Virus record (IMG/VR): IMGVR_UViG_2671180890_000001
From: a virus
Taxonomy: Duplodnaviria > Heunggongvirae > Uroviricota > Caudoviricetes
DNA: 62,572 bases
Strand: one strand, 5' to 3'
In this document: piece after piece, positions 1 through 49,921 of the stretch
How the letters are laid out: each line of letters opens with the position of its first letter
How positions within the stretch are numbered: the stretch's first letter is position 1
The notes under the pieces: model-generated
Seen by the model: only the letters and a program-made list of their open reading frames with translations
Database searches by the model: none
Told to the model about the DNA's origin: nothing
Program-made: the position numbers and the translations under genes

Positions 1-1745
1 ACTGCAGCAAAAAACAGCCAGGTTGCAGCAGCCCAAAGCGAGAGCGCGGCAGCCGGTTCTGCGACTTCAGCAGCTGGATCAGCAACTGCTGCGGCTAACA
101 GCCAGAAAGCTGCGAAGACGAGTGAAACTAACGCAAAGTCCAGCCAGACGGCAGCGAAGACCAGCGAAACGAATGCCAAAGCCAGTGAAACTGCGGCGAA
201 AAGCAGTCAGGATGCAGCGGCCCAAAGCGAGAGTGCCGCAGCCAGTTCTGCAAGCGCGGCGGCTGCTTCTGCCACTGCATCAGCTAACAGTCAAAAAGCA
301 GCAAAAACCAGTGAAACCAACGCAAAGGTGAGCGAAACAGCGGCTGCGAACTCAGCGAAAGCATCGGCAGCAAGCCAGACGGCAGCTAAAGCAAGCGAAG
401 ATGCAGCCAGAGAGTACGCAAGCCAGGCTGCGGAGCCGTATAAATATGTCTTACAGCCGCTGCCTGATGTGTGGATACCATTTAACGATTCGCTGGATAT
501 GATTACGGGCTTTTCGCCATCATATAAAAAAATTGTTATTGGTGACGATGAAATAACGATGCCTGGCGACAAGATTGTTAAGTTTAAACGTGCATCGAAA
601 GCAACCTATATTAACAAATCTGGTGTGCTGACAGAGGCTGCCATTGACGAGCCACGATTTGAACGTGATGGTCTGCTTATTGAGGGGCAAAGAACAAACT
701 ACATGCTCAATTCGGAAAGCCCTGCCAGTTGGGGGCGATCGTCAAATATGGATGTGCCCGAAACAGGGACGGATAATTTTGGTTTTACCTATGGAAAGTT
801 TGTCTGCAACGATTCTCTGATTGGGCAAACCTCAGCCATTAATATGGCATCAATTGCTGCAACAAAGTCAGTTGATGTCTCAGGCGATAATAAATATGTG
901 ACAACCTCATGTCGTTTTAAAACAGAACTGCAGGTAAGGTTGCGTATCCGGTTTGATAAATATGACGTAGCGCAACAACTTTTCTTGGTGATGCGTATAT
1001 TGATACACAAAACGCTTGAAATTAATATGACAGGCGGTGCTGCCTCAAGGATTACAGCGAGAGTCAGAAAGGACGAAGCTACCGGATGGATTTTTGCAGA
1101 GGCAACAATTCAGGCAATTGATGGGGAGTTAAAAATAGGTTCTCAGATACAGTATTCTCCTAAGCAGGGCGGGCAACCGTATCTGGTGACTATATTTATC
1201 TGGCCACCCCACAAGTAGAAAATGGGCCTTGTGTATCATCTTTTATTATATCAGGAACGACGGCGGCGACCCGCGCAAGCGATATAGTTACAGTTCCCAT
1301 TAAGAATAATTTTTATAATCTTCCTTTTACGGTTCTTTGTGAGGTACATAAGAACTGGTATAAAACGCCAAATGCAGCGCCGCGTGTTTTTGATACCGGC
1401 GGTCATCAAACCGGAGCGGCTATTATTCTTGGCTTCGGTTCTTCAGCAGATTACGACGGATTTCCTTATTGCGATATTGGAGGAGCTAACAGACGGGTAA
1501 ACGAAAACGCATCGCTTGAAAAAATGGTTATGGGATGCGTGTAAAGTCAGATCAGTCTACGTGCTCAGTAAGTAACGGCGTATATCCAGCGAAACAAAAA
1601 CCACATGGTCCTGTATTCAGAACACCGCAATTATCCGTATTGGAGGCCAGACTACAGCCGGGTTACGTCATTTATTTGGTCATGTCAGGAATTTCAGAAT
1701 ATGGCACAAGGCATTGACTGATGCTCAGGTGGGGAGTCAATCTAA
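1..1745 (+). pseudogene. stf: Side tail fibre gene, C-terminal two thirds, fold-back copy broken by homopolymer frameshifts
   Basis: Frame 1 translation matches the 793 aa product of 10583..12964(-) except at GG>G and AAA>AAAA sites near 970-1010 and an indel near 1185. Confidence 0.75.
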
Positions 1746-2026
1746 TGAAAGATTTAACACTCAAATTTGCCGACAGGGCCGACTTTTCGGCCTTTATGGA
1801 GAGTATTGGCTATTATGATGACGAGTCGATGCAGGATGATATTCTTATTGACGTGATAGGTAACGTGTACAAAGAAACCGGAGAACTTACTGAAGATGGC
1901 GAGCCGGTATGTGTTAAGGAAGACGGATATTTTGTAAACGTGCGCATCATTAATGATGCAAAAAAATCGTCAATATTCGATGAATACGTGGTTGCTGTTG
2001 AGCATCAACTTCGTGGCTGGATGTGA
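1745..2026 (+). CDS. Hypothetical acidic 93 aa protein (fold-back copy of 10302..10583)
   Basis: Identical translation to 10302..10583(-). Confidence 0.5.
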   Translation: MKDLTLKFADRADFSAFMESIGYYDDESMQDDILIDVIGNVYKETGELTEDGEPVCVKEDGYFVNVRIINDAKKSSIFDEYVVAVEHQLRGWM

Positions 2027-2035
2027 GGAAGAAAA

Positions 2036-3076
2036 ATGGCTACATCGACAGTAATTCCTGAAGACATCAAAACGCTAAAATCCGACGTTAGCAAATTAAA
2101 AAACGATCAAGGAAGCTACGCAACAAAATCATATGTAGACAGCAAAGATGAAACCGTTGGTGACTGGTCTGCTTCATGGTATCAGCAGGTATTGCCAACT
2201 AGCGGAGCTATATTTGGGAGAAAACTCCGCTCAACTCACCGGACGGCAGGTGTTGAGGATGCGTATTGCGAACTATACCTCAAAAAATGGATAGACAGTC
2301 CAGGTAACGCAATGGCGCGCCTTAACCTGAACGATAACGGGACAAACATTTGCTGGGACTTTACCAACCTTTATGGCGGTACGATGATTTTTCCCGGTGA
2401 CAGCGGATACCTCAAAATGGGTAACTGCCTTATGTCATACAGCAAGCGTGGAAGTAACGCGCTTATTAAATTTGATTACACCGACACATTACAGATCAAA
2501 TATGCCAATCATGGGTCAACCATGACATTAAACACACAGGGAACCGCTTATGCTGGTGTTACTGCTCAATTGTGGGGCAACTCCAGCCGTCCTGTTGTTT
2601 ATGAAGTCGGTGTTGATGGTGGCGCTTATATGTTCTATGCGCAGAAAAATACCGATAACACCTATATGTTAAGCGTTAATGGTGCATGTCATGCCACCGC
2701 ATTTAACCAGCATTCCGACCGGGATCTGAAAGACAACATTCAGGTGATCGATAATGCAACCGACCGCATCCGTAAAATGAACGGCTATACATACACGCTT
2801 AAAGAAAACGGTATGCCCTATGCTGGTGTCATTGCACAGGAAGCTCTGGAAGCAATCCCAGAAGTTGTAGGTTCCGCAGTGAAATATCAGGACGGTGCAA
2901 GCGGATCGGAAGGTGAAGAAGGTGAACGTTATTACACAGTAGATTATTCTGGTATTACTGGCTTGCTTGTTCAGGTAGCCAGAGAGTCAGACGACAGAAT
3001 AACAGCACTGGAAGAAGAAAACGCAGAATTAAAACAAAGATTATCTGCAATTGAGGCGGCGCTTGCGTCTAAATAA
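2036..3076 (+). CDS. Tail fibre or receptor-binding protein with C-terminal S74-type intramolecular chaperone domain (fold-back copy of 9252..10292)
   Basis: Identical 346 aa translation. Confidence 0.65.
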   Translation: MATSTVIPEDIKTLKSDVSKLKNDQGSYATKSYVDSKDETVGDWSASWYQQVLPTSGAIFGRKLRSTHRTAGVEDAYCELYLKKWIDSPGNAMARLNLNDNGTNICWDFTNLYGGTMIFPGDSGYLKMGNCLMSYSKRGSNALIKFDYTDTLQIKYANHGSTMTLNTQGTAYAGVTAQLWGNSSRPVVYEVGVDGGAYMFYAQKNTDNTYMLSVNGACHATAFNQHSDRDLKDNIQVIDNATDRIRKMNGYTYTLKENGMPYAGVIAQEALEAIPEVVGSAVKYQDGASGSEGEEGERYYTVDYSGITGLLVQVARESDDRITALEEENAELKQRLSAIEAALASK

Positions 3077-3103
3077 TATTAAGGGGCCGAGCGCCCCGTT
3101 TTA

Positions 3104-3412
3104 TTGGGTGGGATGAAAATGGATATAACACCTTTCCTTCATGCACTTTGTGCTGTGGCTGCGCAGGTACTGGTTGGTCTTTTTACCGGAAACTGGGCTT
3201 ACGGAGCGATAGCCGGTTGTACGTTCTTCATTGCGCGTGAACACACCCAGGCAGAATATCGCTGGATTGAAATGTTCGGGCATGGCAAGCGGATTAACAT
3301 GCCGTGGTGGGGCGGTTTTGATCCGCGCGTGTGGGATGTGGCAAGCCTGATGGATTTTGCTGTGCCGGTGGTGGCGTGTCTGCTGGTCTGGCTGTTGGTT
3401 TATCGTGGGTGA
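3104..3412 (+). CDS. Small membrane protein (fold-back copy of 8916..9224)
   Basis: Identical 102 aa translation, hydrophobic segments. Confidence 0.45.
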   Translation: MGGMKMDITPFLHALCAVAAQVLVGLFTGNWAYGAIAGCTFFIAREHTQAEYRWIEMFGHGKRINMPWWGGFDPRVWDVASLMDFAVPVVACLLVWLLVYRG

Positions 3413-3574
3413 AAAAAGGTGAGCTGTATATGCAACGGAGGAAGAAACCCCGTTGCTGGAAGCCTGGAAAAAGTATCGGGTGTTGTTGAATCGTGTTGAT
3501 ACATCACTATCTCCAGATATCGAGTGGCCAAGTCAACCATAAATCAATATCCCCTGCAATGCAGGGGATATTTC

Positions 3575-4540
3575 TTAATTATCAGTAGATTGTTCCTCTA
3601 GTAACAACTCAATTCTGCTTAGTATTTCTTTAGATATTTTTCGGCTATCAATTTTTATAGTTACAAAATTACCTTTATATCTAGCCGTGATCCCTTCCCC
3701 ATATTTTTTCTCGTCTTTTGTTTTTTCCTCGTCGCCAACCAGAACAGAGTCAGATAATATTTGTATAATCCGTGAAGCTTCTAAATCCTCGCCGTTTTTT
3801 TTAATTGCCAGAAGATGATGAGCAGCATTGCTCATGGCAGCCATGTTTTTTTTGTAGACCTTAAACAAAGAATCTCCAGCACGAGCTGACAGTTCTCCTG
3901 GATGATTGAAGATAGCTAATATATCTTTTGGTAGACCAGCTGTATTAATACAGCGAGTGATAATATTTCTGTCTATATTTTCAGCCTCGGCTAATGCTTT
4001 AACGTTACCATCAAAGTCATTTAGCTTGCGTAAGTATCTCTTTCCTCTTTCGTATGCACTAATAGGCCTATAATCGTTACCAATTTGGGATAACCAATGC
4101 ATCTGTTCATCGTCGAGATCACCTATTAAGACGCGATAGTCACATCCTGTTAATATCGCTGCTTTTCTTCTACGTGAGCCGTCAGCGACTTCAACGATTC
4201 CAGACACTTTTCTGGCGAAAGCTGGATTTTGTTGTCCAGACGTTAGAAAAGATGGGATTAAATCGGCTAGAGAGGATTCATTTAATAAATCTTGATCGCG
4301 TTCATTACCTAGCCATACCATTGTTGCCATTTCAACTTTATCTGCGGGAATTGTCTCTAACTTAAAGTTAACATTACGTCCGCATACTGGCAAAGTTATG
4401 CTGTTACCGGTTAATGAACTCAGTTGACGTTTTAAATCACCAACCATAGGTGATACGGGCTGATGTTCAGGGGCATGATGATTATTACTCATAATGCGAT
4501 TAATATCTGGAGCATTTTTTAGAAGAGAGCGCTGTTTCAT
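3575..4540 (-). CDS. sopB: SopB/ParB partition protein (fold-back copy)
   Basis: Identical to 7788..8753(+). Confidence 0.85.
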   Translation of the reverse strand: MKQRSLLKNAPDINRIMSNNHHAPEHQPVSPMVGDLKRQLSSLTGNSITLPVCGRNVNFKLETIPADKVEMATMVWLGNERDQDLLNESSLADLIPSFLTSGQQNPAFARKVSGIVEVADGSRRRKAAILTGCDYRVLIGDLDDEQMHWLSQIGNDYRPISAYERGKRYLRKLNDFDGNVKALAEAENIDRNIITRCINTAGLPKDILAIFNHPGELSARAGDSLFKVYKKNMAAMSNAAHHLLAIKKNGEDLEASRIIQILSDSVLVGDEEKTKDEKKYGEGITARYKGNFVTIKIDSRKISKEILSRIELLLEEQSTDN

Positions 4541-5707
4541 TATTCGTTCTCCCAGCGAGGTTTTATTAGATCATCAAAAATTTCTCGGCAAACAGGGTCC
4601 CATATAGAAACAGCATTTCTCCATGCATTCAATGTTGAACGTTGGTTTGCTGCTTGTTCAAATACTGTTCTCATTTTTATCTGGCCTTTACCTACTTCAT
4701 CGGTAACGCGTACAACCTGACGTAATACCATTGATCCCCATGTATTTCTTATTTGTTCTTCCATCCATCGTGATTGATTCCCTGTAGTGAGACTATATTT
4801 AGTCAGAAGTAAGCGAACGGTTGGCTCAAATCCACCTAGGTCAACGCTTTCCAATAGATCGAGAAGCATTGTGAAAAAACTGTAGAACAGAAGCGTAATC
4901 AAATAATTCTGCAGGTGTAGCAACAACAATAACGTCAGCGGCACAAACAACGTTAATGGTTCCTGTACCGAGGTTCGGAGCACTATCTATAACGATAACA
5001 TCGTAGTTATCCCAAACTGATTCAATAGCTGCGCGCAGCATAAGGTGTGGAGGATGAGGCAATTTACCCTGAGCATGATATTGCATGAGATCTGTTTCTA
5101 TACGATGTAAAGCTAGGCAGCTAGGGATAATGTCTAGCCCAGGCCAACATGTTGGCTTTATAGCATATTCAGCGTTATCGCGTTCTCCTAAGTAAAATGG
5201 CAGTAAAGTATCCTCGGCATGGATATGTAAATCAGGAACATAACCGTGATACATAGAGGCCGTGCCTTGAGGATCGTTACCTTCAACCAAAAGAACACGA
5301 TGACCTTGTAATGCTAACCATTGAGCTTGATGTACCGCAGACGATGTTTTATAAACGCCGCCTTTGTGTGACATAACGGCAAGCACAACAGGGTTTTTAT
5401 CTTGTGGTCGTTGGTTTGGGTTGCCAAAAACTGCTCGCATACTGTTGATTTGATCTATGGTATAACCAGCACGACGTTCAATTCTTCCTCTCATTTCAAA
5501 GTCAGGTGCAGGTAAACGCCCGCTCTTCTCAGCATCTCTAATTGCTTGAGGAGTTACACCAATTAAATCTGCTACTTCAGTTATACCCCATCGGCGGGTG
5601 ATACGCCGAGCTTCAGGACTATCATCACCGAATTGAGCGATAGCAATTGCTTGGGTCATTTCTTGACCTCTCGTAACACAATCTTGCAATAACTTTTTCA
5701 AAGACAT
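4540..5707 (-). pseudogene. sopA: SopA/ParA partition ATPase, fold-back copy with a 1-nt homopolymer frameshift (A6 here versus T5 in the primary copy near 7450)
   Basis: ORFs 4841..5707 and 4540..4983 together reproduce the 388 aa SopA of 6622..7788 in two frames. Confidence 0.8.
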
Positions 5708-6143
5708 ACTGTCATCTCCAGCTTGTAACTTTGCTTAATAATTAAATCTTTGCTTATTTCTAGCAAATTTGCATGAAAAAGGCAAAGCAAAACGAAAAAC
5801 GCAAAGGTGAATATTTGAGCTAAATCATCTTTTGTTCCCCTCCCGAAATGCATAAAACGAACAACGATATAATCATAACTAATTGATATTTATTATCTTT
5901 TTTAAAGAAAGGAAATCATGTAAAACTAGGGAAACATGATAAGAATCATCAATGAGATACGTTTTCTCTATTAGTTCTCCCAATCTTACCAATACGAGAA
6001 CATAAACAGAGAACATAAAAATCAAGTAATGATACAAACACAATAAAGAACATAAATAAAGAATTAAAACCAATGCTAAATAAAGCAGTACATAATATGA
6101 GAACATTACACCAAATGAGAACATTAATCAAGAACACAACGAA

Positions 6144-6185
6144 ACATAATTCCCCATTATACGTGCGTATAATGGGGAATTATGT
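6144..6185. repeat. Left hairpin telomere (telL) read-through: 20 bp arms around a non-self-complementary TG centre at 6164-6165
   Basis: ACATAATTCCCCATTATACG-TG-CGTATAATGGGGAATTATGT; arms closely resemble the N15 telO palindrome. Confidence 0.85.
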
Positions 6186-6189
6186 TTCG

Positions 6190-6460
6190 TTGTGTTCTTG
6201 ATTAATGTTCTCATTTGGTGTAATGTTCTCATATTATGTACTGCTTTATTTAGCATTGGTTTTAATTCTTTATTTATGTTCTTTATTGTGTTTGTATCAT
6301 TACTTGATTTTTATGTTCTCTGTTTATGTTCTCGTATTGGTAAGATTGGGAGAACTAATAGAGAAAACGTATCTCATTGATGATTCTTATCATGTTTCCC
6401 TAGTTTTACATGATTTCCTTTCTTTAAAAAAGATAATAAATATCAATTAGTTATGATTAT
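6190..6460. promoter_or_regulatory. AT-rich iteron array (about 6 copies of TATGTTCTC-like motif) between telL and sopA; candidate sop promoter or protelomerase/partition protein binding region
   Basis: Repeated ATGTTCTC / GTTGTGTTCT motifs read directly; the predicted ORFs here are mirror-symmetric and low complexity. Confidence 0.35.
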
Positions 6461-6621
6461 ATCGTTGTTCGTTTTATGCATTTCGGGAGGGGAACAAAAG
6501 ATGATTTAGCTCAAATATTCACCTTTGCGTTTTTCGTTTTGCTTTGCCTTTTTCATGCAAATTTGCTAGAAATAAGCAAAGATTTAATTATTAAGCAAAG
6601 TTACAAGCTGGAGATGACAGT

Positions 6622-7788
6622 ATGTCTTTGAAAAAGTTATTGCAAGATTGTGTTACGAGAGGTCAAGAAATGACCCAAGCAATTGCTATCGCTCAATTCG
6701 GTGATGATAGTCCTGAAGCTCGGCGTATCACCCGCCGATGGGGTATAACTGAAGTAGCAGATTTAATTGGTGTAACTCCTCAAGCAATTAGAGATGCTGA
6801 GAAGAGCGGGCGTTTACCTGCACCTGACTTTGAAATGAGAGGAAGAATTGAACGTCGTGCTGGTTATACCATAGATCAAATCAACAGTATGCGAGCAGTT
6901 TTTGGCAACCCAAACCAACGACCACAAGATAAAAACCCTGTTGTGCTTGCCGTTATGTCACACAAAGGCGGCGTTTATAAAACATCGTCTGCGGTACATC
7001 AAGCTCAATGGTTAGCATTACAAGGTCATCGTGTTCTTTTGGTTGAAGGTAACGATCCTCAAGGCACGGCCTCTATGTATCACGGTTATGTTCCTGATTT
7101 ACATATCCATGCCGAGGATACTTTACTGCCATTTTACTTAGGAGAACGCGATAACGCTGAATATGCTATAAAGCCAACATGTTGGCCTGGGCTAGACATT
7201 ATCCCTAGCTGCCTAGCTTTACATCGTATAGAAACAGATCTCATGCAATATCATGCTCAGGGTAAATTGCCTCATCCTCCACACCTTATGCTGCGCGCAG
7301 CTATTGAATCAGTTTGGGATAACTACGATGTTATCGTTATAGATAGTGCTCCGAACCTCGGTACAGGAACCATTAACGTTGTTTGTGCCGCTGACGTTAT
7401 TGTTGTTGCTACACCTGCAGAATTATTTGATTACGCTTCTGTTCTACAGTTTTTCACAATGCTTCTCGATCTATTGGAAAGCGTTGACCTAGGTGGATTT
7501 GAGCCAACCGTTCGCTTACTTCTGACTAAATATAGTCTCACTACAGGGAATCAATCACGATGGATGGAAGAACAAATAAGAAATACATGGGGATCAATGG
7601 TATTACGTCAGGTTGTACGCGTTACCGATGAAGTAGGTAAAGGCCAGATAAAAATGAGAACAGTATTTGAACAAGCAGCAAACCAACGTTCAACATTGAA
7701 TGCATGGAGAAATGCTGTTTCTATATGGGACCCTGTTTGCCGAGAAATTTTTGATGATCTAATAAAACCTCGCTGGGAGAACGAATAA
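6622..7788 (+). CDS. sopA: SopA/ParA partition ATPase, F-plasmid SopA type
   Basis: 388 aa; Walker-type KGGVYKTS motif; near full-length resemblance to F SopA (from memory). Confidence 0.95.
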   Translation: MSLKKLLQDCVTRGQEMTQAIAIAQFGDDSPEARRITRRWGITEVADLIGVTPQAIRDAEKSGRLPAPDFEMRGRIERRAGYTIDQINSMRAVFGNPNQRPQDKNPVVLAVMSHKGGVYKTSSAVHQAQWLALQGHRVLLVEGNDPQGTASMYHGYVPDLHIHAEDTLLPFYLGERDNAEYAIKPTCWPGLDIIPSCLALHRIETDLMQYHAQGKLPHPPHLMLRAAIESVWDNYDVIVIDSAPNLGTGTINVVCAADVIVVATPAELFDYASVLQFFTMLLDLLESVDLGGFEPTVRLLLTKYSLTTGNQSRWMEEQIRNTWGSMVLRQVVRVTDEVGKGQIKMRTVFEQAANQRSTLNAWRNAVSIWDPVCREIFDDLIKPRWENE

Positions 7789-8753
7789 TGAAACAGCGCT
7801 CTCTTCTAAAAAATGCTCCAGATATTAATCGCATTATGAGTAATAATCATCATGCCCCTGAACATCAGCCCGTATCACCTATGGTTGGTGATTTAAAACG
7901 TCAACTGAGTTCATTAACCGGTAACAGCATAACTTTGCCAGTATGCGGACGTAATGTTAACTTTAAGTTAGAGACAATTCCCGCAGATAAAGTTGAAATG
8001 GCAACAATGGTATGGCTAGGTAATGAACGCGATCAAGATTTATTAAATGAATCCTCTCTAGCCGATTTAATCCCATCTTTTCTAACGTCTGGACAACAAA
8101 ATCCAGCTTTCGCCAGAAAAGTGTCTGGAATCGTTGAAGTCGCTGACGGCTCACGTAGAAGAAAAGCAGCGATATTAACAGGATGTGACTATCGCGTCTT
8201 AATAGGTGATCTCGACGATGAACAGATGCATTGGTTATCCCAAATTGGTAACGATTATAGGCCTATTAGTGCATACGAAAGAGGAAAGAGATACTTACGC
8301 AAGCTAAATGACTTTGATGGTAACGTTAAAGCATTAGCCGAGGCTGAAAATATAGACAGAAATATTATCACTCGCTGTATTAATACAGCTGGTCTACCAA
8401 AAGATATATTAGCTATCTTCAATCATCCAGGAGAACTGTCAGCTCGTGCTGGAGATTCTTTGTTTAAGGTCTACAAAAAAAACATGGCTGCCATGAGCAA
8501 TGCTGCTCATCATCTTCTGGCAATTAAAAAAAACGGCGAGGATTTAGAAGCTTCACGGATTATACAAATATTATCTGACTCTGTTCTGGTTGGCGACGAG
8601 GAAAAAACAAAAGACGAGAAAAAATATGGGGAAGGGATCACGGCTAGATATAAAGGTAATTTTGTAACTATAAAAATTGATAGCCGAAAAATATCTAAAG
8701 AAATACTAAGCAGAATTGAGTTGTTACTAGAGGAACAATCTACTGATAATTAA
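7788..8753 (+). CDS. sopB: SopB/ParB centromere-binding protein
   Basis: 321 aa; ParB motif GSRRRKAA; start overlaps sopA stop (TAATGA). Confidence 0.9.
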   Translation: MKQRSLLKNAPDINRIMSNNHHAPEHQPVSPMVGDLKRQLSSLTGNSITLPVCGRNVNFKLETIPADKVEMATMVWLGNERDQDLLNESSLADLIPSFLTSGQQNPAFARKVSGIVEVADGSRRRKAAILTGCDYRVLIGDLDDEQMHWLSQIGNDYRPISAYERGKRYLRKLNDFDGNVKALAEAENIDRNIITRCINTAGLPKDILAIFNHPGELSARAGDSLFKVYKKNMAAMSNAAHHLLAIKKNGEDLEASRIIQILSDSVLVGDEEKTKDEKKYGEGITARYKGNFVTIKIDSRKISKEILSRIELLLEEQSTDN

Positions 8754-8754
8754 G

Positions 8755-8783
8755 AAATATCCCCTGCATTGCAGGGGATATTG
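8755..8783. terminator. Bidirectional hairpin terminator after sopB
   Basis: Perfect inverted repeat ATATCCCCTGC-A-TTGCAGGGGATAT. Confidence 0.5.
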
Positions 8784-8915
8784 ATTTATGGTTGACTTGG
8801 CCACTCGATATCTGGAGATAGTGATGTATCAACACGATTCAACAACACCCGATACTTTTTCCAGGCTTCCAGCAACGGGGTTTCTTCCTCCGTTGCATAT
8901 ACAGCTCACCTTTTT

Positions 8916-9224
8916 TCACCCACGATAAACCAACAGCCAGACCAGCAGACACGCCACCACCGGCACAGCAAAATCCATCAGGCTTGCCACATCCCACACG
9001 CGCGGATCAAAACCGCCCCACCACGGCATGTTAATCCGCTTGCCATGCCCGAACATTTCAATCCAGCGATATTCTGCCTGGGTGTGTTCACGCGCAATGA
9101 AGAACGTACAACCGGCTATCGCTCCGTAAGCCCAGTTTCCGGTAAAAAGACCAACCAGTACCTGCGCAGCCACAGCACAAAGTGCATGAAGGAAAGGTGT
9201 TATATCCATTTTCATCCCACCCAA
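8916..9224 (-). CDS. Small integral membrane protein, function unknown
   Basis: 102 aa ORF with hydrophobic segments; start uncertain. Confidence 0.45.
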   Translation of the reverse strand: MGGMKMDITPFLHALCAVAAQVLVGLFTGNWAYGAIAGCTFFIAREHTQAEYRWIEMFGHGKRINMPWWGGFDPRVWDVASLMDFAVPVVACLLVWLLVYRG

Positions 9225-9251
9225 TAAAACGGGGCGCTCGGCCCCTTAATA

Positions 9252-10292
9252 TTATTTAGACGCAAGCGCCGCCTCAATTGCAGATAATCTTTGTTTTAAT
9301 TCTGCGTTTTCTTCTTCCAGTGCTGTTATTCTGTCGTCTGACTCTCTGGCTACCTGAACAAGCAAGCCAGTAATACCAGAATAATCTACTGTGTAATAAC
9401 GTTCACCTTCTTCACCTTCCGATCCGCTTGCACCGTCCTGATATTTCACTGCGGAACCTACAACTTCTGGGATTGCTTCCAGAGCTTCCTGTGCAATGAC
9501 ACCAGCATAGGGCATACCGTTTTCTTTAAGCGTGTATGTATAGCCGTTCATTTTACGGATGCGGTCGGTTGCATTATCGATCACCTGAATGTTGTCTTTC
9601 AGATCCCGGTCGGAATGCTGGTTAAATGCGGTGGCATGACATGCACCATTAACGCTTAACATATAGGTGTTATCGGTATTTTTCTGCGCATAGAACATAT
9701 AAGCGCCACCATCAACACCGACTTCATAAACAACAGGACGGCTGGAGTTGCCCCACAATTGAGCAGTAACACCAGCATAAGCGGTTCCCTGTGTGTTTAA
9801 TGTCATGGTTGACCCATGATTGGCATATTTGATCTGTAATGTGTCGGTGTAATCAAATTTAATAAGCGCGTTACTTCCACGCTTGCTGTATGACATAAGG
9901 CAGTTACCCATTTTGAGGTATCCGCTGTCACCGGGAAAAATCATCGTACCGCCATAAAGGTTGGTAAAGTCCCAGCAAATGTTTGTCCCGTTATCGTTCA
10001 GGTTAAGGCGCGCCATTGCGTTACCTGGACTGTCTATCCATTTTTTGAGGTATAGTTCGCAATACGCATCCTCAACACCTGCCGTCCGGTGAGTTGAGCG
10101 GAGTTTTCTCCCAAATATAGCTCCGCTAGTTGGCAATACCTGCTGATACCATGAAGCAGACCAGTCACCAACGGTTTCATCTTTGCTGTCTACATATGAT
10201 TTTGTTGCGTAGCTTCCTTGATCGTTTTTTAATTTGCTAACGTCGGATTTTAGCGTTTTGATGTCTTCAGGAATTACTGTCGATGTAGCCAT
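9252..10292 (-). CDS. Second tail fibre or receptor-binding protein with C-terminal peptidase S74-type intramolecular chaperone domain
   Basis: 346 aa; C-terminal SDRDLKDNI ... YTVDYSGITGLLVQ ... coiled-coil tail typical of auto-cleaving fibre chaperone domains. Confidence 0.7.
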   Translation of the reverse strand: MATSTVIPEDIKTLKSDVSKLKNDQGSYATKSYVDSKDETVGDWSASWYQQVLPTSGAIFGRKLRSTHRTAGVEDAYCELYLKKWIDSPGNAMARLNLNDNGTNICWDFTNLYGGTMIFPGDSGYLKMGNCLMSYSKRGSNALIKFDYTDTLQIKYANHGSTMTLNTQGTAYAGVTAQLWGNSSRPVVYEVGVDGGAYMFYAQKNTDNTYMLSVNGACHATAFNQHSDRDLKDNIQVIDNATDRIRKMNGYTYTLKENGMPYAGVIAQEALEAIPEVVGSAVKYQDGASGSEGEEGERYYTVDYSGITGLLVQVARESDDRITALEEENAELKQRLSAIEAALASK

Positions 10293-10301
10293 TTTTCTTC
10301 C

Positions 10302-10583
10302 TCACATCCAGCCACGAAGTTGATGCTCAACAGCAACCACGTATTCATCGAATATTGACGATTTTTTTGCATCATTAATGATGCGCACGTTTACAAAATA
10401 TCCGTCTTCCTTAACACATACCGGCTCGCCATCTTCAGTAAGTTCTCCGGTTTCTTTGTACACGTTACCTATCACGTCAATAAGAATATCATCCTGCATC
10501 GACTCGTCATCATAATAGCCAATACTCTCCATAAAGGCCGAAAAGTCGGCCCTGTCGGCAAATTTGAGTGTTAAATCTTTCAT
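10302..10583 (-). CDS. Hypothetical acidic protein between the two fibre genes
   Basis: 93 aa ORF; start overlaps stf stop. Confidence 0.5.
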   Translation of the reverse strand: MKDLTLKFADRADFSAFMESIGYYDDESMQDDILIDVIGNVYKETGELTEDGEPVCVKEDGYFVNVRIINDAKKSSIFDEYVVAVEHQLRGWM

Positions 10584-12964
10584 TAGATTGACTCCCCCAC
10601 CTGAGCATCAGTCAATGCCTTGTGCCATATTCTGAAATTCCTGACATGACCAAATAAATGACGTAACCCGGCTGTAGTCTGGCCTCCAATACGGATAATT
10701 GCGGTGTTCTGAATACAGGACCATGTGGTTTTTGTTTCGCTGGATATACGCCCGTTACTTACTGAGCACGTAGACTGATCTGACTTTACACGCATCCCCA
10801 TAACCATTTTTTCAAGCGATGCGTTTTCGTTTACCCGTCTGTTAGCTCCTCCAATATCGCAATAAGGAAATCCGTCGTAATCTGCTGAAGAACCGAAGCC
10901 AAGAATAATAGCCGCTCCGGTTTGATGACCGCCGGTATCAAAAACACGCGGCGCTGCATTTGGCGTTTTATACCAGTTCTTATGTACCTCACAAAGAACC
11001 GTAAAAGGAAGATTATAAAAATTATTCTTAATGGGAACTGTAACTATATCGCTTGCGCGGGTCGCCGCCGTCGTTCCTGATATAATAAAAGATGATACAC
11101 AAGGCCCATTTTCTACTTGTGGGGTGGCCAGATAAATATAGTCACCAGATACGGTTGCCCCGCCCTGCTTAGGAGAATACTGTATCTGAGAACCTATTTT
11201 TAACTCCCCATCAATTGCCTGAATTGTTGCCTCTGCAAAAATCCATCCGGTAGCTTCGTCCTTTCTGACTCTCGCTGTAATCCTTGAGGCAGCACCGCCT
11301 GTCATATTAATTTCAAGCGTTTGTGTATCAATATACGCATCACCAAGAAAAGTTGTTGCGCTACCGTCATATTTATCAAACCGGATACGCAACCTTACCT
11401 GCAGTTCTGTTTTAAAACGACATGAGGTTGTCACATATTTATTATCGCCTGAGACATCAACTGACTTTGTTGCAGCAATTGATGCCATATTAATGGCTGA
11501 GGTTTGCCCAATCAGAGAATCGTTGCAGACAAACTTTCCATAGGTAAAACCAAAATTATCCGTCCCTGTTTCGGGCACATCCATATTTGACGATCGCCCC
11601 CAACTGGCAGGGCTTTCCGAATTGAGCATGTAGTTTGTTCTTTGCCCCTCAATAAGCAGACCATCACGTTCAAATCGTGGCTCGTCAATGGCAGCCTCTG
11701 TCAGCACACCAGATTTGTTAATATAGGTTGCTTTCGATGCACGTTTAAACTTAACAATCTTGTCGCCAGGCATCGTTATTTCATCGTCACCAATAACAAT
11801 TTTTTTATATGATGGCGAAAAGCCCGTAATCATATCCAGCGAATCGTTAAATGGTATCCACACATCAGGCAGCGGCTGTAAGACATATTTATACGGCTCC
11901 GCAGCCTGGCTTGCGTACTCTCTGGCTGCATCTTCGCTTGCTTTAGCTGCCGTCTGGCTTGCTGCCGATGCTTTCGCTGAGTTCGCAGCCGCTGTTTCGC
12001 TCACCTTTGCGTTGGTTTCACTGGTTTTTGCTGCTTTTTGACTGTTAGCTGATGCAGTGGCAGAAGCAGCCGCCGCGCTTGCAGAACTGGCTGCGGCACT
12101 CTCGCTTTGGGCCGCTGCATCCTGACTGCTTTTCGCCGCAGTTTCACTGGCTTTGGCATTCGTTTCGCTGGTCTTCGCTGCCGTCTGGCTGGACTTTGCG
12201 TTAGTTTCACTCGTCTTCGCAGCTTTCTGGCTGTTAGCCGCAGCAGTTGCTGATCCAGCTGCTGAAGTCGCAGAACCGGCTGCCGCGCTCTCGCTTTGGG
12301 CTGCTGCAACCTGGCTGTTTTTTGCTGCAGTTTCACTGGCTTTAGCATTCGTTTCGCTGGTCTTCGCTGCCGTCTGGCTGGACTTTGCGTTGGTTTCGCT
12401 CGTCTTTGCGGCTGTCTCGCTATTTTTCGCGTTGGTTTCTGATTTTTTAGCTGCTGTCGCGGAGTTTGCCGATGCAGTCTGTGAGGTCGCTGCCGCCTGT
12501 GCGCTGTTAGCTGCATTCGTTTCTGAGGTTTTCGCCGCGTTCTTCGATGATGCCGCTGCAGTTTCGGATTTCTTTGCCGCCGCTGCGCTCTGAGAAGCGG
12601 CTTCGGCGTTGCGTGCCGCTTCTTCCACCATTTCCTGAAAACGGCGCAATGCCTCCGGCATGACATCATCTTCCGTCATGGCACCGAGAAAATCATTCAG
12701 CGTACCTGGTCTGGAGCCTTCATAGACGGTAATGGTCCCGGCATGTGAAGGCGGAAAACCTTCAACCAGCAGGGTGACGCTGTACTGGCCATACTCAACA
12801 TCCATGCTGTAACGCCCGGCTTCATCAGGATTTTCAGAGGCCACCGTGTTCACCAGTACCGTGGTGCTGTTACGCTTTGCCTTCAGTTGAATAGTGCAGT
12901 TCTGTATTGGTTTTCCCGCACCATCTTTCAGCACACCTGAGATTTTTACTGCTGCCATATCCAC
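10583..12964 (-). CDS. stf: Side tail fibre protein: lambda Stf-like N-terminus, Ala/Ser-rich tandem repeats, divergent C-terminal domain
   Basis: 793 aa; N-terminal KISGVLKDG...SHAGTITVYE as in lambda Stf; repeats of KTSETNAKxSxTAA. Confidence 0.85.
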   Translation of the reverse strand: MDMAAVKISGVLKDGAGKPIQNCTIQLKAKRNSTTVLVNTVASENPDEAGRYSMDVEYGQYSVTLLVEGFPPSHAGTITVYEGSRPGTLNDFLGAMTEDDVMPEALRRFQEMVEEAARNAEAASQSAAAAKKSETAAASSKNAAKTSETNAANSAQAAATSQTASANSATAAKKSETNAKNSETAAKTSETNAKSSQTAAKTSETNAKASETAAKNSQVAAAQSESAAAGSATSAAGSATAAANSQKAAKTSETNAKSSQTAAKTSETNAKASETAAKSSQDAAAQSESAAASSASAAAASATASANSQKAAKTSETNAKVSETAAANSAKASAASQTAAKASEDAAREYASQAAEPYKYVLQPLPDVWIPFNDSLDMITGFSPSYKKIVIGDDEITMPGDKIVKFKRASKATYINKSGVLTEAAIDEPRFERDGLLIEGQRTNYMLNSESPASWGRSSNMDVPETGTDNFGFTYGKFVCNDSLIGQTSAINMASIAATKSVDVSGDNKYVTTSCRFKTELQVRLRIRFDKYDGSATTFLGDAYIDTQTLEINMTGGAASRITARVRKDEATGWIFAEATIQAIDGELKIGSQIQYSPKQGGATVSGDYIYLATPQVENGPCVSSFIISGTTAATRASDIVTVPIKNNFYNLPFTVLCEVHKNWYKTPNAAPRVFDTGGHQTGAAIILGFGSSADYDGFPYCDIGGANRRVNENASLEKMVMGMRVKSDQSTCSVSNGRISSETKTTWSCIQNTAIIRIGGQTTAGLRHLFGHVRNFRIWHKALTDAQVGESI

Positions 12965-44923: not shown

Positions 44924-47900
44924 ATGACATTAAACGATTTCTATGCGGATCGCTTTGGCAGCGATCCGTTCTCGCTAATTGAAGCAGCACGGGATGAACT
45001 AACCGAGCTGGCACAGATGGCTGGTATCAACTGGCCTGCCTGTTCCGACAACATCCAACTCAACCCTCGCGGGGGGGTTGAGCGTTACTCTTCATACAAT
45101 AAAACATCTCCAGAAGCTCTCGAAAAGAGCCTGAAAGGACGCGTAGAAATTTACTCCAGGCTGGAACACAGCAAAGGGATTGATTACCCGTTCATTAACT
45201 TCGTCCATAAAGGCAGCGATGCTGGCTCATGGAGCGGTTTCTCCTTCCTGTTTTCTGAATATCGCCGTGAGCAACAACGGAATAATGCGACCGTGGTCGC
45301 ACAACCGGAAGAAGAACGGGAAAGAATAGAACGTCAGGCCGAAGCACGTCGTCGCCGTGAAGAACAAAAACGAATTAATGACCTGAAAAACAACCAAATG
45401 GACCATGAACGTTTGCTGGGATGGCTGGCATTCCACAGCGCGTGGGAACATGCTCCGGCTGAAGACGGCTCATGGCCATATGCGATTAAAAAAGGTATTC
45501 GTGACGTTTTTAGTTCATGTGATGTGCGTCGCGTGACCAGTCACGACAGTGCGAAATGGAGCCGGGGGCCAACCACATATATGGCTATCCCTCTGGCTCA
45601 CCTGGACAGTCGTTATGATGGTCGTATTGTGGGTTGGCAGCGAATCGACAAACAAGGTGGGAAATACCAGACCAGCGCAGTAACCAGCGGCGATTTCGTC
45701 GGTGCCTGCTTTGTTATCGGTGAGCTGAAAGGGGCGCAAAACATCGCTGTTACAGAAGGTTTTGCTACTGGTGCATCCATCTGGCTTGCCACGAAAAAAG
45801 ATAAACGCTTTGACGCTGTGGTTGTCGCTGTATCCGCTAACAACATGGTTCATGTTGTGGAACAACTGGTAAACATGTACCCGGCGGCAAAAATCACCTG
45901 CGCACTGGATAATGACCGGAAATCTGCCACAGAAGGAAAAGGGAATACCGGCCTGCGGACTGGCTATGAAATCTTATCGAAATTCAACGATGTCCGCTGC
46001 GTCTATCCAACTTTTGAAGACGATCCGCAAATGGAGTGCAGTGACTTCAACGACCTGCACAAACTACGTGGACTTCGTGAAACAGCACGTCAACTGTTTG
46101 CAACAGCAAACCGCCTGAAAACCGGTACTGATTTGCTATCTCTGACGCTCAACCGCCTGAAGACAATTAAGCGGGATAACCGTCGTACTTTTGCCAAAGA
46201 GCTGCTGAGAGCGGTGGATATTGGCATGCTAACCTGTCCGGTTCCTAACAGTCCGTCAGATTTATTTAACATGTTCTGCATCGTTCTGCGTGAAATGGGA
46301 CTGGAAAATATCTATCGTGCTACGGTAAAAGACCACATTGCCCGTCGCCTGAATAAAAAGTGCCGTATTGCCCAGGCTCCGCGCTCTTTCAGCGAACGCA
46401 TAACTGATCCCAATAAACGACCTCAACATATCACCTATAAGCGTTTTGAAACTTCGGTAATGACCGATGATGTCCTGAAGTACGTGCAATCACTACAGGG
46501 GATAGTCATCGTCCGTGCTGGTATGGGTTCCGGCAAATCTACTGGATTGTTACGACCGTTAATGCATAGCTCAGAACGTGGTATCTCTGTTGCTCACCGT
46601 GTCTCCCTTATTGGTGGCCTGTGGGAAATGATGACAGAAGGAAAAGGTGTAAAAGCCGATATCCTGCACTATCAGGATCCTGGCTATCAGGAAATGGCTC
46701 CATACGCCAGTAAACTGACCATCTGCATAAACTCGATTGTTAAAAACTGCTGGCAACCGTTGATGCGCCAGCACGACTATTTTGGCTTTGACGAGGCCAC
46801 ACAAGGGCTACGTGCCGTTCTTTCCGGTCGGGCTATGGAAAACCCGGTGGCTGTATTCAATACGCTAATTGACGCGCTGGCCAGAACGGAACAACACCCA
46901 ATCATGGTGGATGCTGATGCGAACGATCTGCTGGTTGACCTGGCTGAACTGGCTATGAAACGCCGTGAAGAACTAGGTTTACCGGCATGGCTGCAGATCC
47001 ACGTAATTGAATTACCTGTTGATGTTCGCAACCGCGAAACAGGTGAGCCAATCCGGGTTTTTTATACAGAAAAAGATCGCATCATGACCGAGGTGGTGAA
47101 AGCTGTATCGGATGGCGAAAAAATCATGTTGGCCACCGACAGCTCCACCTTTGCAGAAGATGTGACAGCCACCCTGAGAATGCATTTTCCTGGTAAGAAA
47201 TTTCTGTGTGTAAACCAGAAAAACAAACCAGAGCCAGAAGTTGAAGCATTTACCAATCAACCGAAAAAGATGGTCAAAAAATACGACGGCCTGATTTATA
47301 GCCCGTCTATTTCATCCGGCGTGTCGATTGAGCAAAAACATTTTGACCGTCATTTCGGCATGTTCTGTGGTGAAGTTGTACCCAGCGACGCAGTGCAAAT
47401 GCTACGCCGCGACCGTACAGCAAAAGAATTTATTATCGGCTTTGATAAAGCTCGTGCAAAACGTGAAACTGACCCGCAAAAAATAGAACGAGCATTCGCC
47501 CAGGCATTGCTTGCTACTGCAGGTATGAACGGTGAACTGACGGATGTCGTTTTCGATGGCGACCGTATATCAATGGGGGTGGCCAATACCGACTTTACCA
47601 GGATGAAAATTAAAGCAGCCGCAATTGAAGCGTCTGCACGTAACGACTACGCCAGCAACATGATCTGCATCATGCACAGCGACGGTTATAAGATATCGCC
47701 GCTGGCCACCGATTATGCTGCAAATGATATCGGTAAAGATCTGCGTAAAGAAGCGCGGGATATTGTGTGGGAACAGACACTGGATCTGCATCTCAATACA
47801 GAAACTCCACAAGAATCAGAGCGTGAAGAACTGCTAAAAAAACGCGCGCTGACGCTTGAAGAACAGGCAAAACTTGTCCGCTGGGATATTGAGAACGAAC

Positions 47901-48919
47901 TGAAACTACCGGTTGAAGAAGGCACGCTGAAATTCTATTTCGATGGTGCTCGAGACAAAGTTCGCCGCTATGAAACAATGCTTTTAGATGAGGTAACAGC
48001 TCGTCGTTACGACCGGGAAGAAGCAGCCATCAATTTTACCTACGCATACCGTCAGGCGGGACAGTGGCAATATTTTGTAGTGACCGCAATGACTCGCGAG
48101 CAGGCTGATGATGTCTTTAAAACTAAATTCCCTGGAATAATCGACTACAAGGTAAAAGCTACTCCTACTGTTGAAGTCGGGGCGCGCGGTTTCTATGCGC
48201 TTAAATCAGCAACTCTCCGGCAGTACTTTATCGACTGCGGTATCAACCCTGAGACTATGACCGGCGAGGCGACTCAGGAGCGTCTCAAATTTGCTCGAGA
48301 TAACCTCATGACAGCCGAACGCCGTGACCTGTTGAATAACGTTCTGCACATTGGTGGTTTTATGACGCCAAAAGGGAAGCCTAAAGTGCCGGAAGCGTTG
48401 TTTAAAAACATTTGCGACTCTCTTGGCCTTAAAACAGGTAAACGTCGCGGCAGAGACGGCGATAAGCGTCCAACCTTGCGTTTTGTTGAGCCTGAATCAG
48501 CGGCATTTATGCTGGATATTCTTGCTCAGCGTCAGAAAGATGGCCTAACCCTGAAAACGCGTAAAGCCGAGAAGACTGCCATCGAAATGGATCGCGATTT
48601 GGATCTCAATATATATATGGATGATAAAACGCGATCCACAAACGAGCAGGTTCAAAACGCCCCTCATTCAGTAATTTCTGAGGCTTTGGCTGTGTTGCCA
48701 GTGGTTGTACCTGAGTCCTGGGCGATGAGTGCGCTTTCCGGTGAGGAGCTGGCCACTATGTCATCATGGTCATCAGCTAGCATAGCTATGACGTTTGCAT
48801 CTCTGTACCTCACAGAGTTCATGGATCACTTATCCAGCAATGAACTGCGGCGGTTACGTGAATACATTACCGGGAATAGCCCATGCAGCTACGAAGAGCA
48901 GGGCGCTTTCTATGGGTAA
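44924..48919 (+). CDS. repA: RepA multifunctional replication protein (primase plus helicase), N15 RepA-like
   Basis: 1331 aa; TOPRIM-like CALDNDRK region; Walker A GMGSGKST. Confidence 0.9.
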   Translation: MTLNDFYADRFGSDPFSLIEAARDELTELAQMAGINWPACSDNIQLNPRGGVERYSSYNKTSPEALEKSLKGRVEIYSRLEHSKGIDYPFINFVHKGSDAGSWSGFSFLFSEYRREQQRNNATVVAQPEEERERIERQAEARRRREEQKRINDLKNNQMDHERLLGWLAFHSAWEHAPAEDGSWPYAIKKGIRDVFSSCDVRRVTSHDSAKWSRGPTTYMAIPLAHLDSRYDGRIVGWQRIDKQGGKYQTSAVTSGDFVGACFVIGELKGAQNIAVTEGFATGASIWLATKKDKRFDAVVVAVSANNMVHVVEQLVNMYPAAKITCALDNDRKSATEGKGNTGLRTGYEILSKFNDVRCVYPTFEDDPQMECSDFNDLHKLRGLRETARQLFATANRLKTGTDLLSLTLNRLKTIKRDNRRTFAKELLRAVDIGMLTCPVPNSPSDLFNMFCIVLREMGLENIYRATVKDHIARRLNKKCRIAQAPRSFSERITDPNKRPQHITYKRFETSVMTDDVLKYVQSLQGIVIVRAGMGSGKSTGLLRPLMHSSERGISVAHRVSLIGGLWEMMTEGKGVKADILHYQDPGYQEMAPYASKLTICINSIVKNCWQPLMRQHDYFGFDEATQGLRAVLSGRAMENPVAVFNTLIDALARTEQHPIMVDADANDLLVDLAELAMKRREELGLPAWLQIHVIELPVDVRNRETGEPIRVFYTEKDRIMTEVVKAVSDGEKIMLATDSSTFAEDVTATLRMHFPGKKFLCVNQKNKPEPEVEAFTNQPKKMVKKYDGLIYSPSISSGVSIEQKHFDRHFGMFCGEVVPSDAVQMLRRDRTAKEFIIGFDKARAKRETDPQKIERAFAQALLATAGMNGELTDVVFDGDRISMGVANTDFTRMKIKAAAIEASARNDYASNMICIMHSDGYKISPLATDYAANDIGKDLRKEARDIVWEQTLDLHLNTETPQESEREELLKKRALTLEEQAKLVRWDIENELKLPVEEGTLKFYFDGARDKVRRYETMLLDEVTARRYDREEAAINFTYAYRQAGQWQYFVVTAMTREQADDVFKTKFPGIIDYKVKATPTVEVGARGFYALKSATLRQYFIDCGINPETMTGEATQERLKFARDNLMTAERRDLLNNVLHIGGFMTPKGKPKVPEALFKNICDSLGLKTGKRRGRDGDKRPTLRFVEPESAAFMLDILAQRQKDGLTLKTRKAEKTAIEMDRDLDLNIYMDDKTRSTNEQVQNAPHSVISEALAVLPVVVPESWAMSALSGEELATMSSWSSASIAMTFASLYLTEFMDHLSSNELRRLREYITGNSPCSYEEQGAFYG
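45286..45301. promoter_or_regulatory. sopC-like centromere palindrome, site 5, inside repA codons 121-127
   Basis: TGCGACCGTGGTCGCA encoding NATVVAQ. Confidence 0.6.
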
Positions 48920-49103
48920 TCAGTGGATATTATCTTTGTGTCTCTTGCTTTGTGTGTTCCAGCAATGGTTTTGGTTCATAGATCGAAAGTCTCACAAGGA
49001 AAACATGAAGGCCAGGAAGGCGATGTTTCGTGGTGAACAACTCGCGCAGACTTATCGTATGTGGAAACGTTTCTATCGTGATTTTTCGGTGAACGGGGAG
49101 TAA
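48912..49103 (+). CDS. Hypothetical small membrane protein
   Basis: Internal Met MGNQWILSLCLLLC; overlaps repA stop. Confidence 0.4.
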   Translation: MGNQWILSLCLLLCVFQQWFWFIDRKSHKENMKARKAMFRGEQLAQTYRMWKRFYRDFSVNGE

Positions 49104-49107
49104 AAAT

Positions 49108-49434
49108 ATGTCTACTACTGCATTTTTGGACAAACTTGATTACCGTCAGCTGCAGTTTTGCCGGGATGAATGCGATCGACGCATTAAGGCTATCCAGGAG
49201 GAAGAAAAAAAGGTTGCCTGGGCTGTAACAGATCGTGGCCTTATCTTTGGCTGGTTCCGTACGGAGGATTATCTGAAAGCAGTGGAATTATTGGCGCGTG
49301 AGGCTGCTGAGCGTTGGGAACGAGCCGACAAGGAAAACCCGGAGACGAAGTATGAACTGAATCTCTACATCGAGGGCAACCGTCTACCATTGTCAGAGTA
49401 TAACGCTTTGTTTGCTGATGGTGAGTGGGGTTAA
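49108..49434 (+). CDS. Hypothetical protein
   Basis: 108 aa ORF. Confidence 0.5.
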   Translation: MSTTAFLDKLDYRQLQFCRDECDRRIKAIQEEEKKVAWAVTDRGLIFGWFRTEDYLKAVELLAREAAERWERADKENPETKYELNLYIEGNRLPLSEYNALFADGEWG

Positions 49435-49832
49435 AAATGGCTGTTCAATCATACAAATACGAATCCCCTTTGGATAAGGGATACATTCGTATCAAGTTAA
49501 GTCGTTCTCAACATAAGGCTATTTTTAAGGTAAGGAAAATTCGCATATTGGATGCGTATGCGTATTACTACAACGGTGAAAATGTTGTTGTTGAACACTT
49601 TCTTGCACGATGGTTTGTAGCTCTGATTTTTGTCCCTCTCCTGTTAATTGGTACTTTTGTGGATGGTTTTCCTAGTACATGGCGGGAGATAAAGAAAGGC
49701 CTATTCCCGCGTAAGTACGGCAGATTTTCGCAAGATAGCTGGCGAGTTATACCTGGTAAACATTCTGTGGATGAGCAGCCGATTGTTGATTACTGGTTGA
49801 AGCGTATGGCTGATGCTAAAAAAGTTGATTGA
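49425..49832 (+). CDS. Hypothetical membrane protein
   Basis: 135 aa ORF with a central hydrophobic segment. Confidence 0.5.
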   Translation: MGLKMAVQSYKYESPLDKGYIRIKLSRSQHKAIFKVRKIRILDAYAYYYNGENVVVEHFLARWFVALIFVPLLLIGTFVDGFPSTWREIKKGLFPRKYGRFSQDSWRVIPGKHSVDEQPIVDYWLKRMADAKKVD

Positions 49833-49921
49833 ATAGTGATGACTGTTCAAGTTAAACCGTTCTCGGCATATTTTATTTAATGGAATAACATATTATTAAT
49901 CAAATAGGTTAAGTTAATATT

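Follow-up and report, generated by a model that had tools for sequence, protein, structure and literature searches.

The array of short repeats found between the left telomere (telL) and the sopA gene (6190-6460) is most likely, as judged from the sequence, the counterpart in a diverged Escherichia relative of the tos repeats already described in phage N15. It is probably the telL half of an extended telomere occupancy site equivalent to the 310-bp N15 tos, and would consist of outward-pointing degenerate copies of the TelN outer-arm motif. The repeats are non-random, conserved, oriented in one direction and similar to the telomere arm, and they are separate from the SopA and SopB sites. The initial annotation had proposed, among other readings, that they were N15-like tos sites flanking the telomere, and this reading is supported by the distances shared with N15, by the outward direction of the sites, by their likeness to the arm and by the flank repeats of three other telomere-phage lineages.

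The window, that is the whole stretch of 62,572 nucleotides analysed, is a circularised fold-back mis-assembly of a linear hairpin replicon in which both ends are duplicated in inverted orientation. Positions 1-6163 are the reverse complement of 6166-12331, bar a few single-base indels, and positions 54548-62151 are the reverse complement of 46940-54545. The last 421 and the first 300 bases together read, without a break, as the reverse complement of 12754-12032. The contig was accordingly circularised, and its chimeric junction is at 62151/62152, where this segment meets the reverse complement of 46940. Both fold-back centres (6164/6165 and 54546/54547) fall within the same palindrome, CCCCATTATACG-NN-CGTATAATGGGG, as expected when an assembler handles a linear replicon whose hairpin ends are covalently closed. 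Without the redundant copies, the element measures about 48.4 kb (6165-54546), with sopA and sopB reading inward at its left end and the protelomerase gene on the minus strand at its right end. Its closest records are Escherichia phage PhiR46_1 and 24 "plasmids" of 45-50 kb from Escherichia coli, E. albertii and E. fergusonii, many of which were likewise assembled as fold-backs, several of those in PLSDB with two inverted sopA genes. As the assembly reads around the hairpin, the array is seen twice in the window, and the second copy is an assembly artefact and no second locus:

5995-6140, minus strand: mirror duplicate of the array (inverted repeat; reverse-complement motif matches at 5996-6131)

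In the mirror copy, sopA is broken into ORFs of 288 aa (4841-5707, minus strand) and 147 aa (4540-4983, minus strand), whereas the right-hand copy (6622-7788) is intact and encodes 388 aa. The inverted arms slip register by one base near 4876/7452; since such single-base indels separate two copies of the same DNA, the consensus is noisy, as with long reads.

The identification of the left telomere and of sopA in the initial annotation was correct, the former being confirmed by the fold-back dyad and the latter by a SopA that is 93% identical to that of N15. The elements of the two telomeres are the following:

6164-6165: telL tip (dyad), the fold-back centre; its arms (4875-6163 and 6166-7454), separated by 2 nt, are 100% complementary
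6165-6191, plus strand: telL half-site of the protelomerase target, with the telO half GCGTATAATGGGG and the outer arm TTATGTTTCGTT at 6180-6191
54520-54531, minus strand: telR outer arm TTATGTGCTGAT (L3 equivalent), 19-27 nt from the telR dyad (54546/54547)
52460-54355, minus strand: telN, a protelomerase of 631 aa; Pfam TelK_N, TelK_muzzle, ResT-TelK_cat and TelK_stirrup, all far above their cut-offs

Two alignments were used, A2 for window positions 54330-54560 and A3 for window positions 6140-6640. The latter comprises the telL flank of the window together with those of 12 Escherichia plasmid records, PhiR46_1, N15 and Enterobacter Ravinvirus MStein-2023a (16 sequences). In A3, the telomere core CCATTATACG..CGTATAATGG is invariant among all relatives including N15. 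The outer arm of telR is the N15 L3/R3 motif. At telL, the arm TTATGTTTCGTT occupies the position where N15, phiKO2 and one Escherichia clade carry TGTGCTGAT (R3), and the clade of the window has there a sequence of the flank type, TGTTTCGTT or TGTTCCGTT, instead of TGTGCTGAT. Comparison of A2 with A3 indicates that the telL arm alone has left the canonical TGTGCTGAT. Work on N15 suggests that the outer arm is needed for resolution. The replicated telLL junction carries the telL sequence in both of its arms, so that, if the outer arm is needed here too, the TelN of this clade must accept an arm of the TGTTYC type.

On the telL flank, ATGTTCT is found at 6205, 6223, 6276, 6313 and 6326 and GTGTTCT at 6192 (within GTTGTGTTCT, 6189-6198), all six on the plus strand, which bears out the five or six copies of the ATGTTCT type claimed at first. 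Whereas 0.26 occurrences of RTGTTCT are expected in 6180-6345, six are present, a number reached in none of 5000 dinucleotide-preserving shuffles. With a stricter test, in which the commonest k-mer of any kind had to be as frequent, 41-85 of 3000 shuffles reached the observed value; this result is less extreme because shuffled AT-rich DNA is itself rich in T-runs. Nowhere else in the non-redundant 48.4-kb genome does a stretch of 166 nt contain at least four copies. The copies were scored in bits and are listed below:

6190-6201, plus strand: copy 1, TTGTGTTCTTGA, 15.4 bits; RTGTTCTTG in the Escherichia relatives, ATGTTCC in N15
6203-6214, plus strand: copy 2, TAATGTTCTCAT, 15.4 bits; kept in the Escherichia relatives, not in N15
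6221-6232, plus strand: copy 3, TAATGTTCTCAT, 15.4 bits; the aligned position in N15 reads ATGTTCCGA
6274-6285, plus strand: copy 4, TTATGTTCTTTA, 16.6 bits; the best conserved copy
6311-6322, plus strand: copy 5, TTATGTTCTCTG, 15.8 bits; aligned in N15 with ATGTTCTTT, 151 nt from the N15 dyad
6324-6335, plus strand: copy 6, TTATGTTCTCGT, 15.3 bits; RTGTTCT in all Escherichia-clade sequences, GTGTTTC in N15
6237-6296, plus strand: degenerate copies among the strong ones, TGTACTGCT at 6237, TAATTCTTT at 6263 and TGTGTTTGT at 6287

Copy 4 reads RTGTTCTT in 15 of the 16 aligned sequences, N15 included, the Enterobacter phage having ATGCTCTTT in its place. The degenerate copies at 6237 and 6263 read TGTTCTC and GTGTTCTGT in one Escherichia clade and in N15. 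The AT-richness first noted for the spacer is real (29% GC for the spacer and 26% for the array, against 49% for the genome; the plus strand of the array is 56% T), but the motif does not fill its roughly 450 bp: strong copies are confined to 6190-6335, about the first 170 bp from the tip of a 457-bp spacer, and 6340-6460 contains weak or inverted copies only. The units measure about 10-12 bp and are spaced irregularly, 11-53 bp apart; no helical phasing of 10-11 bp could be detected in the array (Rayleigh p 0.14-0.96).

The same motif is present on the telN side of the other telomere, where three groups of copies were found:

54442-54478, minus strand: two outward copies, TTGTGTTCTGTT (54442-54453; 14.9 bits; 97 nt from the dyad) and TTGTGTTTTTAT (54467-54478; 14.0 bits; 72 nt from the dyad)
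54385-54396, minus strand: weak copy TTGTGTTACGAT, 8.7 bits, 30-40 nt upstream of the telN start
54495-54516, plus strand: two weaker copies, TTTGTTCC and TTTGTTCTG, which point towards the telomere and adjoin the telR arm

The second motif of the initial annotation, GTTGTGTTCT, was indeed found again beside telR, on its telN side (54445-54454, minus strand; mirror copy at 54639, plus strand). Both outward copies have counterparts in N15, in the same orientation, at 97 and 73 nt from the N15 dyad. Within the weak copy upstream of telN, ATCGTAACACAAT is invariant in A2, from this element through to N15; the copy overlaps an extended -10-like sequence, TGnTACGAT, read on the strand of telN, and, as a speculation, such a putative promoter overlap would suit an autoregulation of telN. 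The two inward copies beside the telR arm, at whose place N15 has TTGTTCTG and ATGTTCTC, are in the wrong orientation and count against the reading of the repeats as TelN sites.

The matrix used for the scan was derived from 35 distinct homologous copies in the flanks (consensus TTATGTTCTTTT), and the arms were excluded from it. A matrix made of the six window copies alone had been rejected as overfitted and unable to score the arms. With the 35-copy matrix, 52 sites of at least 8 bits were detected in the 48.4 kb, ten of them within the 648 nt of the two telomere flanks, and the eight sites of at least 14 bits are all in these flanks. The enumeration of the motif on both flanks thus gave seven sites of at least 8 bits on the plus strand beside telL and three on the minus strand beside telR, and all ten point outward from the dyad, as do the two target arms. 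Measured from the dyad, the scored sites are found at 19-163 nt on the telL side and at 19-154 nt on the telR side, and telN and sopA flank the two ends. The arms themselves were found by this flank-only matrix in the right register and orientation, TTATGTTTCGTT of telL with 9.9 bits (rank 26 of 96,742 positions) and TTATGTGCTGAT of telR with 7.9 bits (rank 54 of 96,742). By a simple count of matches, the likeness of the array to the arm is modest: 6192-6464 contains three matches to TGTGCTGAT at 7 or more of 9 positions where 0.74 are expected, a count reached by 190 of 5000 shuffles. Other genome windows equal or exceed the telL flank in this respect, and the measure was not relied on.

The motif is also conserved in related telomere phages, its cores being kept in 13 Escherichia relatives, in N15 and in the Enterobacter Ravinvirus. 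Over 6191-6344, the identity to the window across the 15 relatives was 0.92 for the 36 core columns and 0.72 for the 118 other columns; when N15 and MStein-2023a were considered alone, the values were 0.79 for core and 0.40 for spacer columns. In every comparison, the observed core conservation was reached by none of 5000 random placements of six 6-mers, a test that partly rests on MAFFT aligning similar motifs together. As MAFFT may favour such motif-on-motif alignment, N15 was also scanned alignment-free, with a matrix made of the Escherichia-clade copies only and leaving N15 out. Six of the 11 matches in 6 kb fell within 155 bp of the N15 dyad, at -97, -73, -36, +103, +116 and +151, and in the window the telR side has sites at dyad distances of 97 and 72 nt and the telL side at 113, 150 and 163 nt. 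The core conservation and the N15 distances indicate that the array is an old feature under selection, common to this element and N15. In a blastn search of the spacer against phage records, PhiR46_1 was the only record found, the N15 spacer being too diverged.

These results bear on the possibility that the copies are non-functional relics, i.e. arm duplications, now decayed, that slippage at the palindromic end or its faulty resolution had generated. Such an origin is compatible with the nature of the copies, which are degenerate forms of the arm and become more decayed away from the tip, and with a telL flank that evolves faster than the telR flank among the same relatives (mean column identity of about 80% on the sopA side in A3, against 93% on the telN side in A2). 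It is made improbable by cores that were kept while the spacers diverged, by dyad distances that were retained between N15 and this element and by the appearance of the same architecture with unrelated motifs in PY54 and phiARM81ld.

In the other telomere phages, the flank repeats follow the arm of the phage itself. The phiKO2 flanks carry the repeats ATTGTGTTATGAT and TGTTACGATAA, the former differing from the arm ATTGTGTGCTGAT at 2 of 13 positions, and these repeats are mirror-symmetric across telRL, with a 17-nt pair that is 100% complementary. In PY54, whose palindrome is different, the arm of the phage (AGTAACCTATTTC/GGTTACT) is copied in the flanks as AGTAACCCATTC/GGGTTACT. The telomere site of Aeromonas phage phiARM81ld is an 84-bp perfect palindrome, and its arm segment AAGCGTACCAAT occurs twice exactly in the protelomerase-side flank and as CATTGGTGCGCT in the other flank. 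In a cross-test, the 9-mers of the PY54 arm matched the PY54 flanks 5.5 times, against 1.1 expected, and the flanks of the other phages 0.5-1.5 times, whereas for arms of the TGTGCTGAT type 4-8 matches were counted in the N15-like and phiKO2 flanks, where about 1.3 are expected, and two in those of PY54. The PY54 pal and the phiKO2 telRL thus resemble the present site in having copies of their own arm on both flanks, in mirror symmetry about the palindrome, but their motifs differ from the one described here (GGGTTACT in PY54, TGTTAYGAT in phiKO2) and, unlike here, the icd gene separates the telomere site of PY54 from its partition operon. Sequences adjoining the PY54 tel palindrome are known to matter for processing in vivo (PMC3540006; PMC10612081). 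As the repeat changes with the telomere arm of each phage, the protelomerase is indicated as the binder rather than a host factor. One observation does not fit with this: N15 and phiKO2 have the same arm and different flank variants (TGTTCY and TGTTAY, respectively), which is not what a single fixed specificity predicts.

The main rival explanation starts from this last point. The array could contain operators for another DNA-binding protein, either a regulator of the phage-plasmid itself or a host regulator of the OmpR/ArcA/TorR type, that would control divergent telN and sopAB promoters. Regulators of the latter type bind TGTT-type direct repeats, and the array motif may resemble the tor boxes (CTGTTCATAT) and the ArcA half-sites (TGTTA), a resemblance counted in favour of this rival. 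Short direct repeats in an AT-rich divergent promoter region and variants that differ between N15 and phiKO2 types despite the same TelN arms would agree with it as well. Nevertheless, another regulator is unlikely: the sites of at least 14 bits are found at the telomeres only, the mirror symmetry is about the telomere dyad and not about a promoter, the irregular spacing lacks the 10-11 bp phasing, and in PY54 and phiARM81ld the motif follows the arm of the phage while host regulators are conserved across these hosts.

The initial annotation had also considered that the repeats might be SopA autoregulatory operators, as they are located upstream of sopA. The partition genes and their operator are organised as follows:

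6622-8753, plus strand: sopA (6622-7788) and sopB (7788-8753), ORFs with Pfam matches to a ParA-type ATPase and to the SopB HTH domain
6523-6600, plus strand: SopA (ParA type Ia) operator, with CTTTGC at 6523 and 6542, ATTTGC at 6560 and GCAAAG at 6576 and 6595

The ParA/SopA protein of F binds CTTTGC, present as three direct copies at 13-bp intervals with inverted partners 27-29 bp away, in an operator that overlaps the sop promoter, and this operator layout is kept in N15 and phiKO2 (PMC8465637). Here, the hexamers follow a 19-bp step with an inverted spacing of 28/29 bp directly upstream of sopA, in agreement with the spacing known from F, N15 and phiKO2, and they are invariant in the 16 aligned sequences of A3, N15 included. 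The operator shares its intergenic region with the array, being located 360-435 bp from the tip, and belongs to the same operon as in F, N15 and phiKO2; the array shares neither CTTTGC nor the ordered 19-bp step nor the 28-bp inverted pairs of such operators. No CTTTGC or GCAAAG is present in 6190-6460. The finding of a complete, conserved canonical operator at 6523-6600 means that the SopA operator is a separate element outside the array, and the array motif is also encountered on the telN side of the other telomere, where there are no sop genes. The SopA-operator reading is therefore very improbable and has been abandoned.

Two minor features adjoin this operator. A 51-aa ORF (6476-6631, plus strand), annotated as a hypothetical protein in PhiR46_1, spans the whole operator; it lacks a Pfam match, one Escherichia clade has lost its ATG, and it is unlikely to be a gene. 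The sequence TATCAATTAGTTA at 6441-6453 (plus strand) perfectly matches the IHF core WATCAANNNNTTR, is the sole such match in the 48.4 kb and is kept in the Escherichia relatives. This predicted IHF site has the array on one side and the SopA operator on the other, and it might introduce a bend between two protein-binding regions.

The array was also rejected as SopB centromere, for which a palindrome related to TGGGACCACGGTCCCA is required: no copy is found near the telomere, all of them being at 34-45 kb. The 16-bp palindrome TGCGACCACGGTCGCA is present in five dispersed copies (34403, 34623, 37633, 42843 and 45286), against 0.27 expected. These copies are likely to be the SopB centromere, dispersed as in N15, and one of them is inside the RepA-like gene, as reported for N15.

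The term "iteron", used in the initial annotation, proved to be a misnomer. The array does share with plasmid iterons its direct repeats in an AT-rich stretch, and could on this ground be regarded as a set of replication iterons bound by a RepA initiator. Unlike such iterons, which are regular, measure about 17-22 bp and lie beside rep or the origin, its units are short (about 10-12 bp), irregularly spaced and symmetric about the telomere, and they have no adjacent rep. The RepA-like gene (44924-48919), encoding a Toprim and an origin-binding helicase-like region, is 38 kb away from the array, and no cluster of the array motif was detected in it. A role as RepA iterons is consequently scarcely credible. 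In N15, the origin reportedly lies inside repA.

Other readings of the region were discarded. The ORFs covering the array (6192-6380 and 6205-6450) vary in frame and length among the relatives and are absent from N15 and the Enterobacter phage. A promoter-like sequence inside the array (TTCTCA-18-TATTAT, 6208-6237) was rejected since its -10 hexamer is not conserved in the relatives; the promoter scan placed no conserved promoter in the array and no sop promoter with confidence. In the Rfam scan, no family reached its gathering score; the five strongest sub-threshold matches lie over the fold-back at about 6164/6165 and the two weakest at 6422-6591.

Among the proteins considered, TelN is the candidate that would bind the array, by way of its stirrup domain (residues 443-533). 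We infer this role of TelN, and all functional consequences described below, from the features of the DNA. In the proposed mechanism, one TelN would remain on the hairpin half-site (6165-6191) and more TelN would occupy, most likely via the stirrup domain, the weaker TGTTCT sites up to about 165 bp from the dyad on both flanks. Such a telomere-proximal complex could hold TelN at a high concentration at the place of resolution of the replicated telLL junction, could help to shield the hairpin end from host nucleases and could dampen the transcription that runs from the telomeres towards sopAB and telN. In N15, control of the sop operon is reported to involve both the Sop proteins and the protelomerase, the latter acting on a distal promoter that it would repress.

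In each feature of N15-type tos repeats that can be read in the DNA, the array appears to be a member of this class. In both elements, the repeats lie within about 155-165 bp of the dyad, between telN and sopA, the TelN and SopA genes are present, the core is TGTTCY and several dyad distances are equal. The N15 tos measures 310 bp and its L1/L2 and R1/R2 repeats are degenerate copies of L3/R3 (PMC12624138), and the same relation to the L3/R3 arms is suggested here by the ranks of the arms with the flank-only matrix. The binding of TelN CTD1 to the N15 flank repeats, with the formation of a protective assembly, was called "conceivable" in the same 2025 study, in which TelN's C-terminal domains were dispensable for end protection (EMBO J 2025, PMC12624138). 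Owing to this dispensability, the protective role of the array in particular is doubtful. Differences with N15 are also evident: two repeats per side are usually named in N15, whereas at least seven outward copies were scored here on the telL side; the intervening sequence has diverged beyond detection by blastn; and the telL arm is TGTTTCGTT and not TGTGCTGAT. A more speculative extension, which we consider possible but doubtful, is that the platform of at least seven sites would allow TelN to polymerise from the tip over about 165 bp per arm into a shelterin-like cap that would set transcription into sopAB and telN. If this were true, the expression of partition and protelomerase genes would be coupled to the state of the end, which may be a hairpin already resolved, a telLL junction after replication or, shortly after infection, a naked telRL.

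Hairpin-telomere replicons have ends that need recognition, resolution and protection, and TelN/tos is a widely used engineering tool, most often with the 56-bp telRL only. The retention of own-arm copies in the flanks of four lineages, with cores under selection, indicates a natural site several times the size of the minimal one, and the selected cores mark which bases should be mutated in order to learn why. Compared with what is described for N15, the additions are modest: more copies than usually cited, a flank-type motif in the arm position of one clade, and the recurrence of arm copies in the flanks across four telomere-phage lineages. For this window, the outcome is mainly a clean annotation, in which the telomere half-site, the accessory TelN-type repeats, the SopA operator and the SopB centromeres are separated and the record itself is flagged as a fold-back assembly.

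Two observations were made at the telomere tips. On the telR side, a promoter-like sequence (TTGACT-18-CATAAT, 10 of 12 matches; 54503-54532, plus strand) overlaps the inward copies and points into the telR hairpin, its -10 hexamer falling inside the TelN half-site. It is kept in all seven Escherichia-clade sequences aligned and is absent from N15. On a circular or unresolved telRL, this putative promoter would read across the telomere site towards sopAB, and in the linear prophage it would lead into the tip. Finally, the telO centre reads TACG-TG-CGTA at telL (6164-6165) and TACG-CA-CGTA at telR (54546-54547), that is TG/CA in this record instead of the CG of N15, and CGCGCG is found at this centre in all 15 relatives, including a plasmid that is 99.8% identical. 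The two readings are compatible with a single non-palindromic TG centre in telRL, each end being a TG/CA mixture after replication, and equally well with a systematic base-calling error at the hairpin tip.
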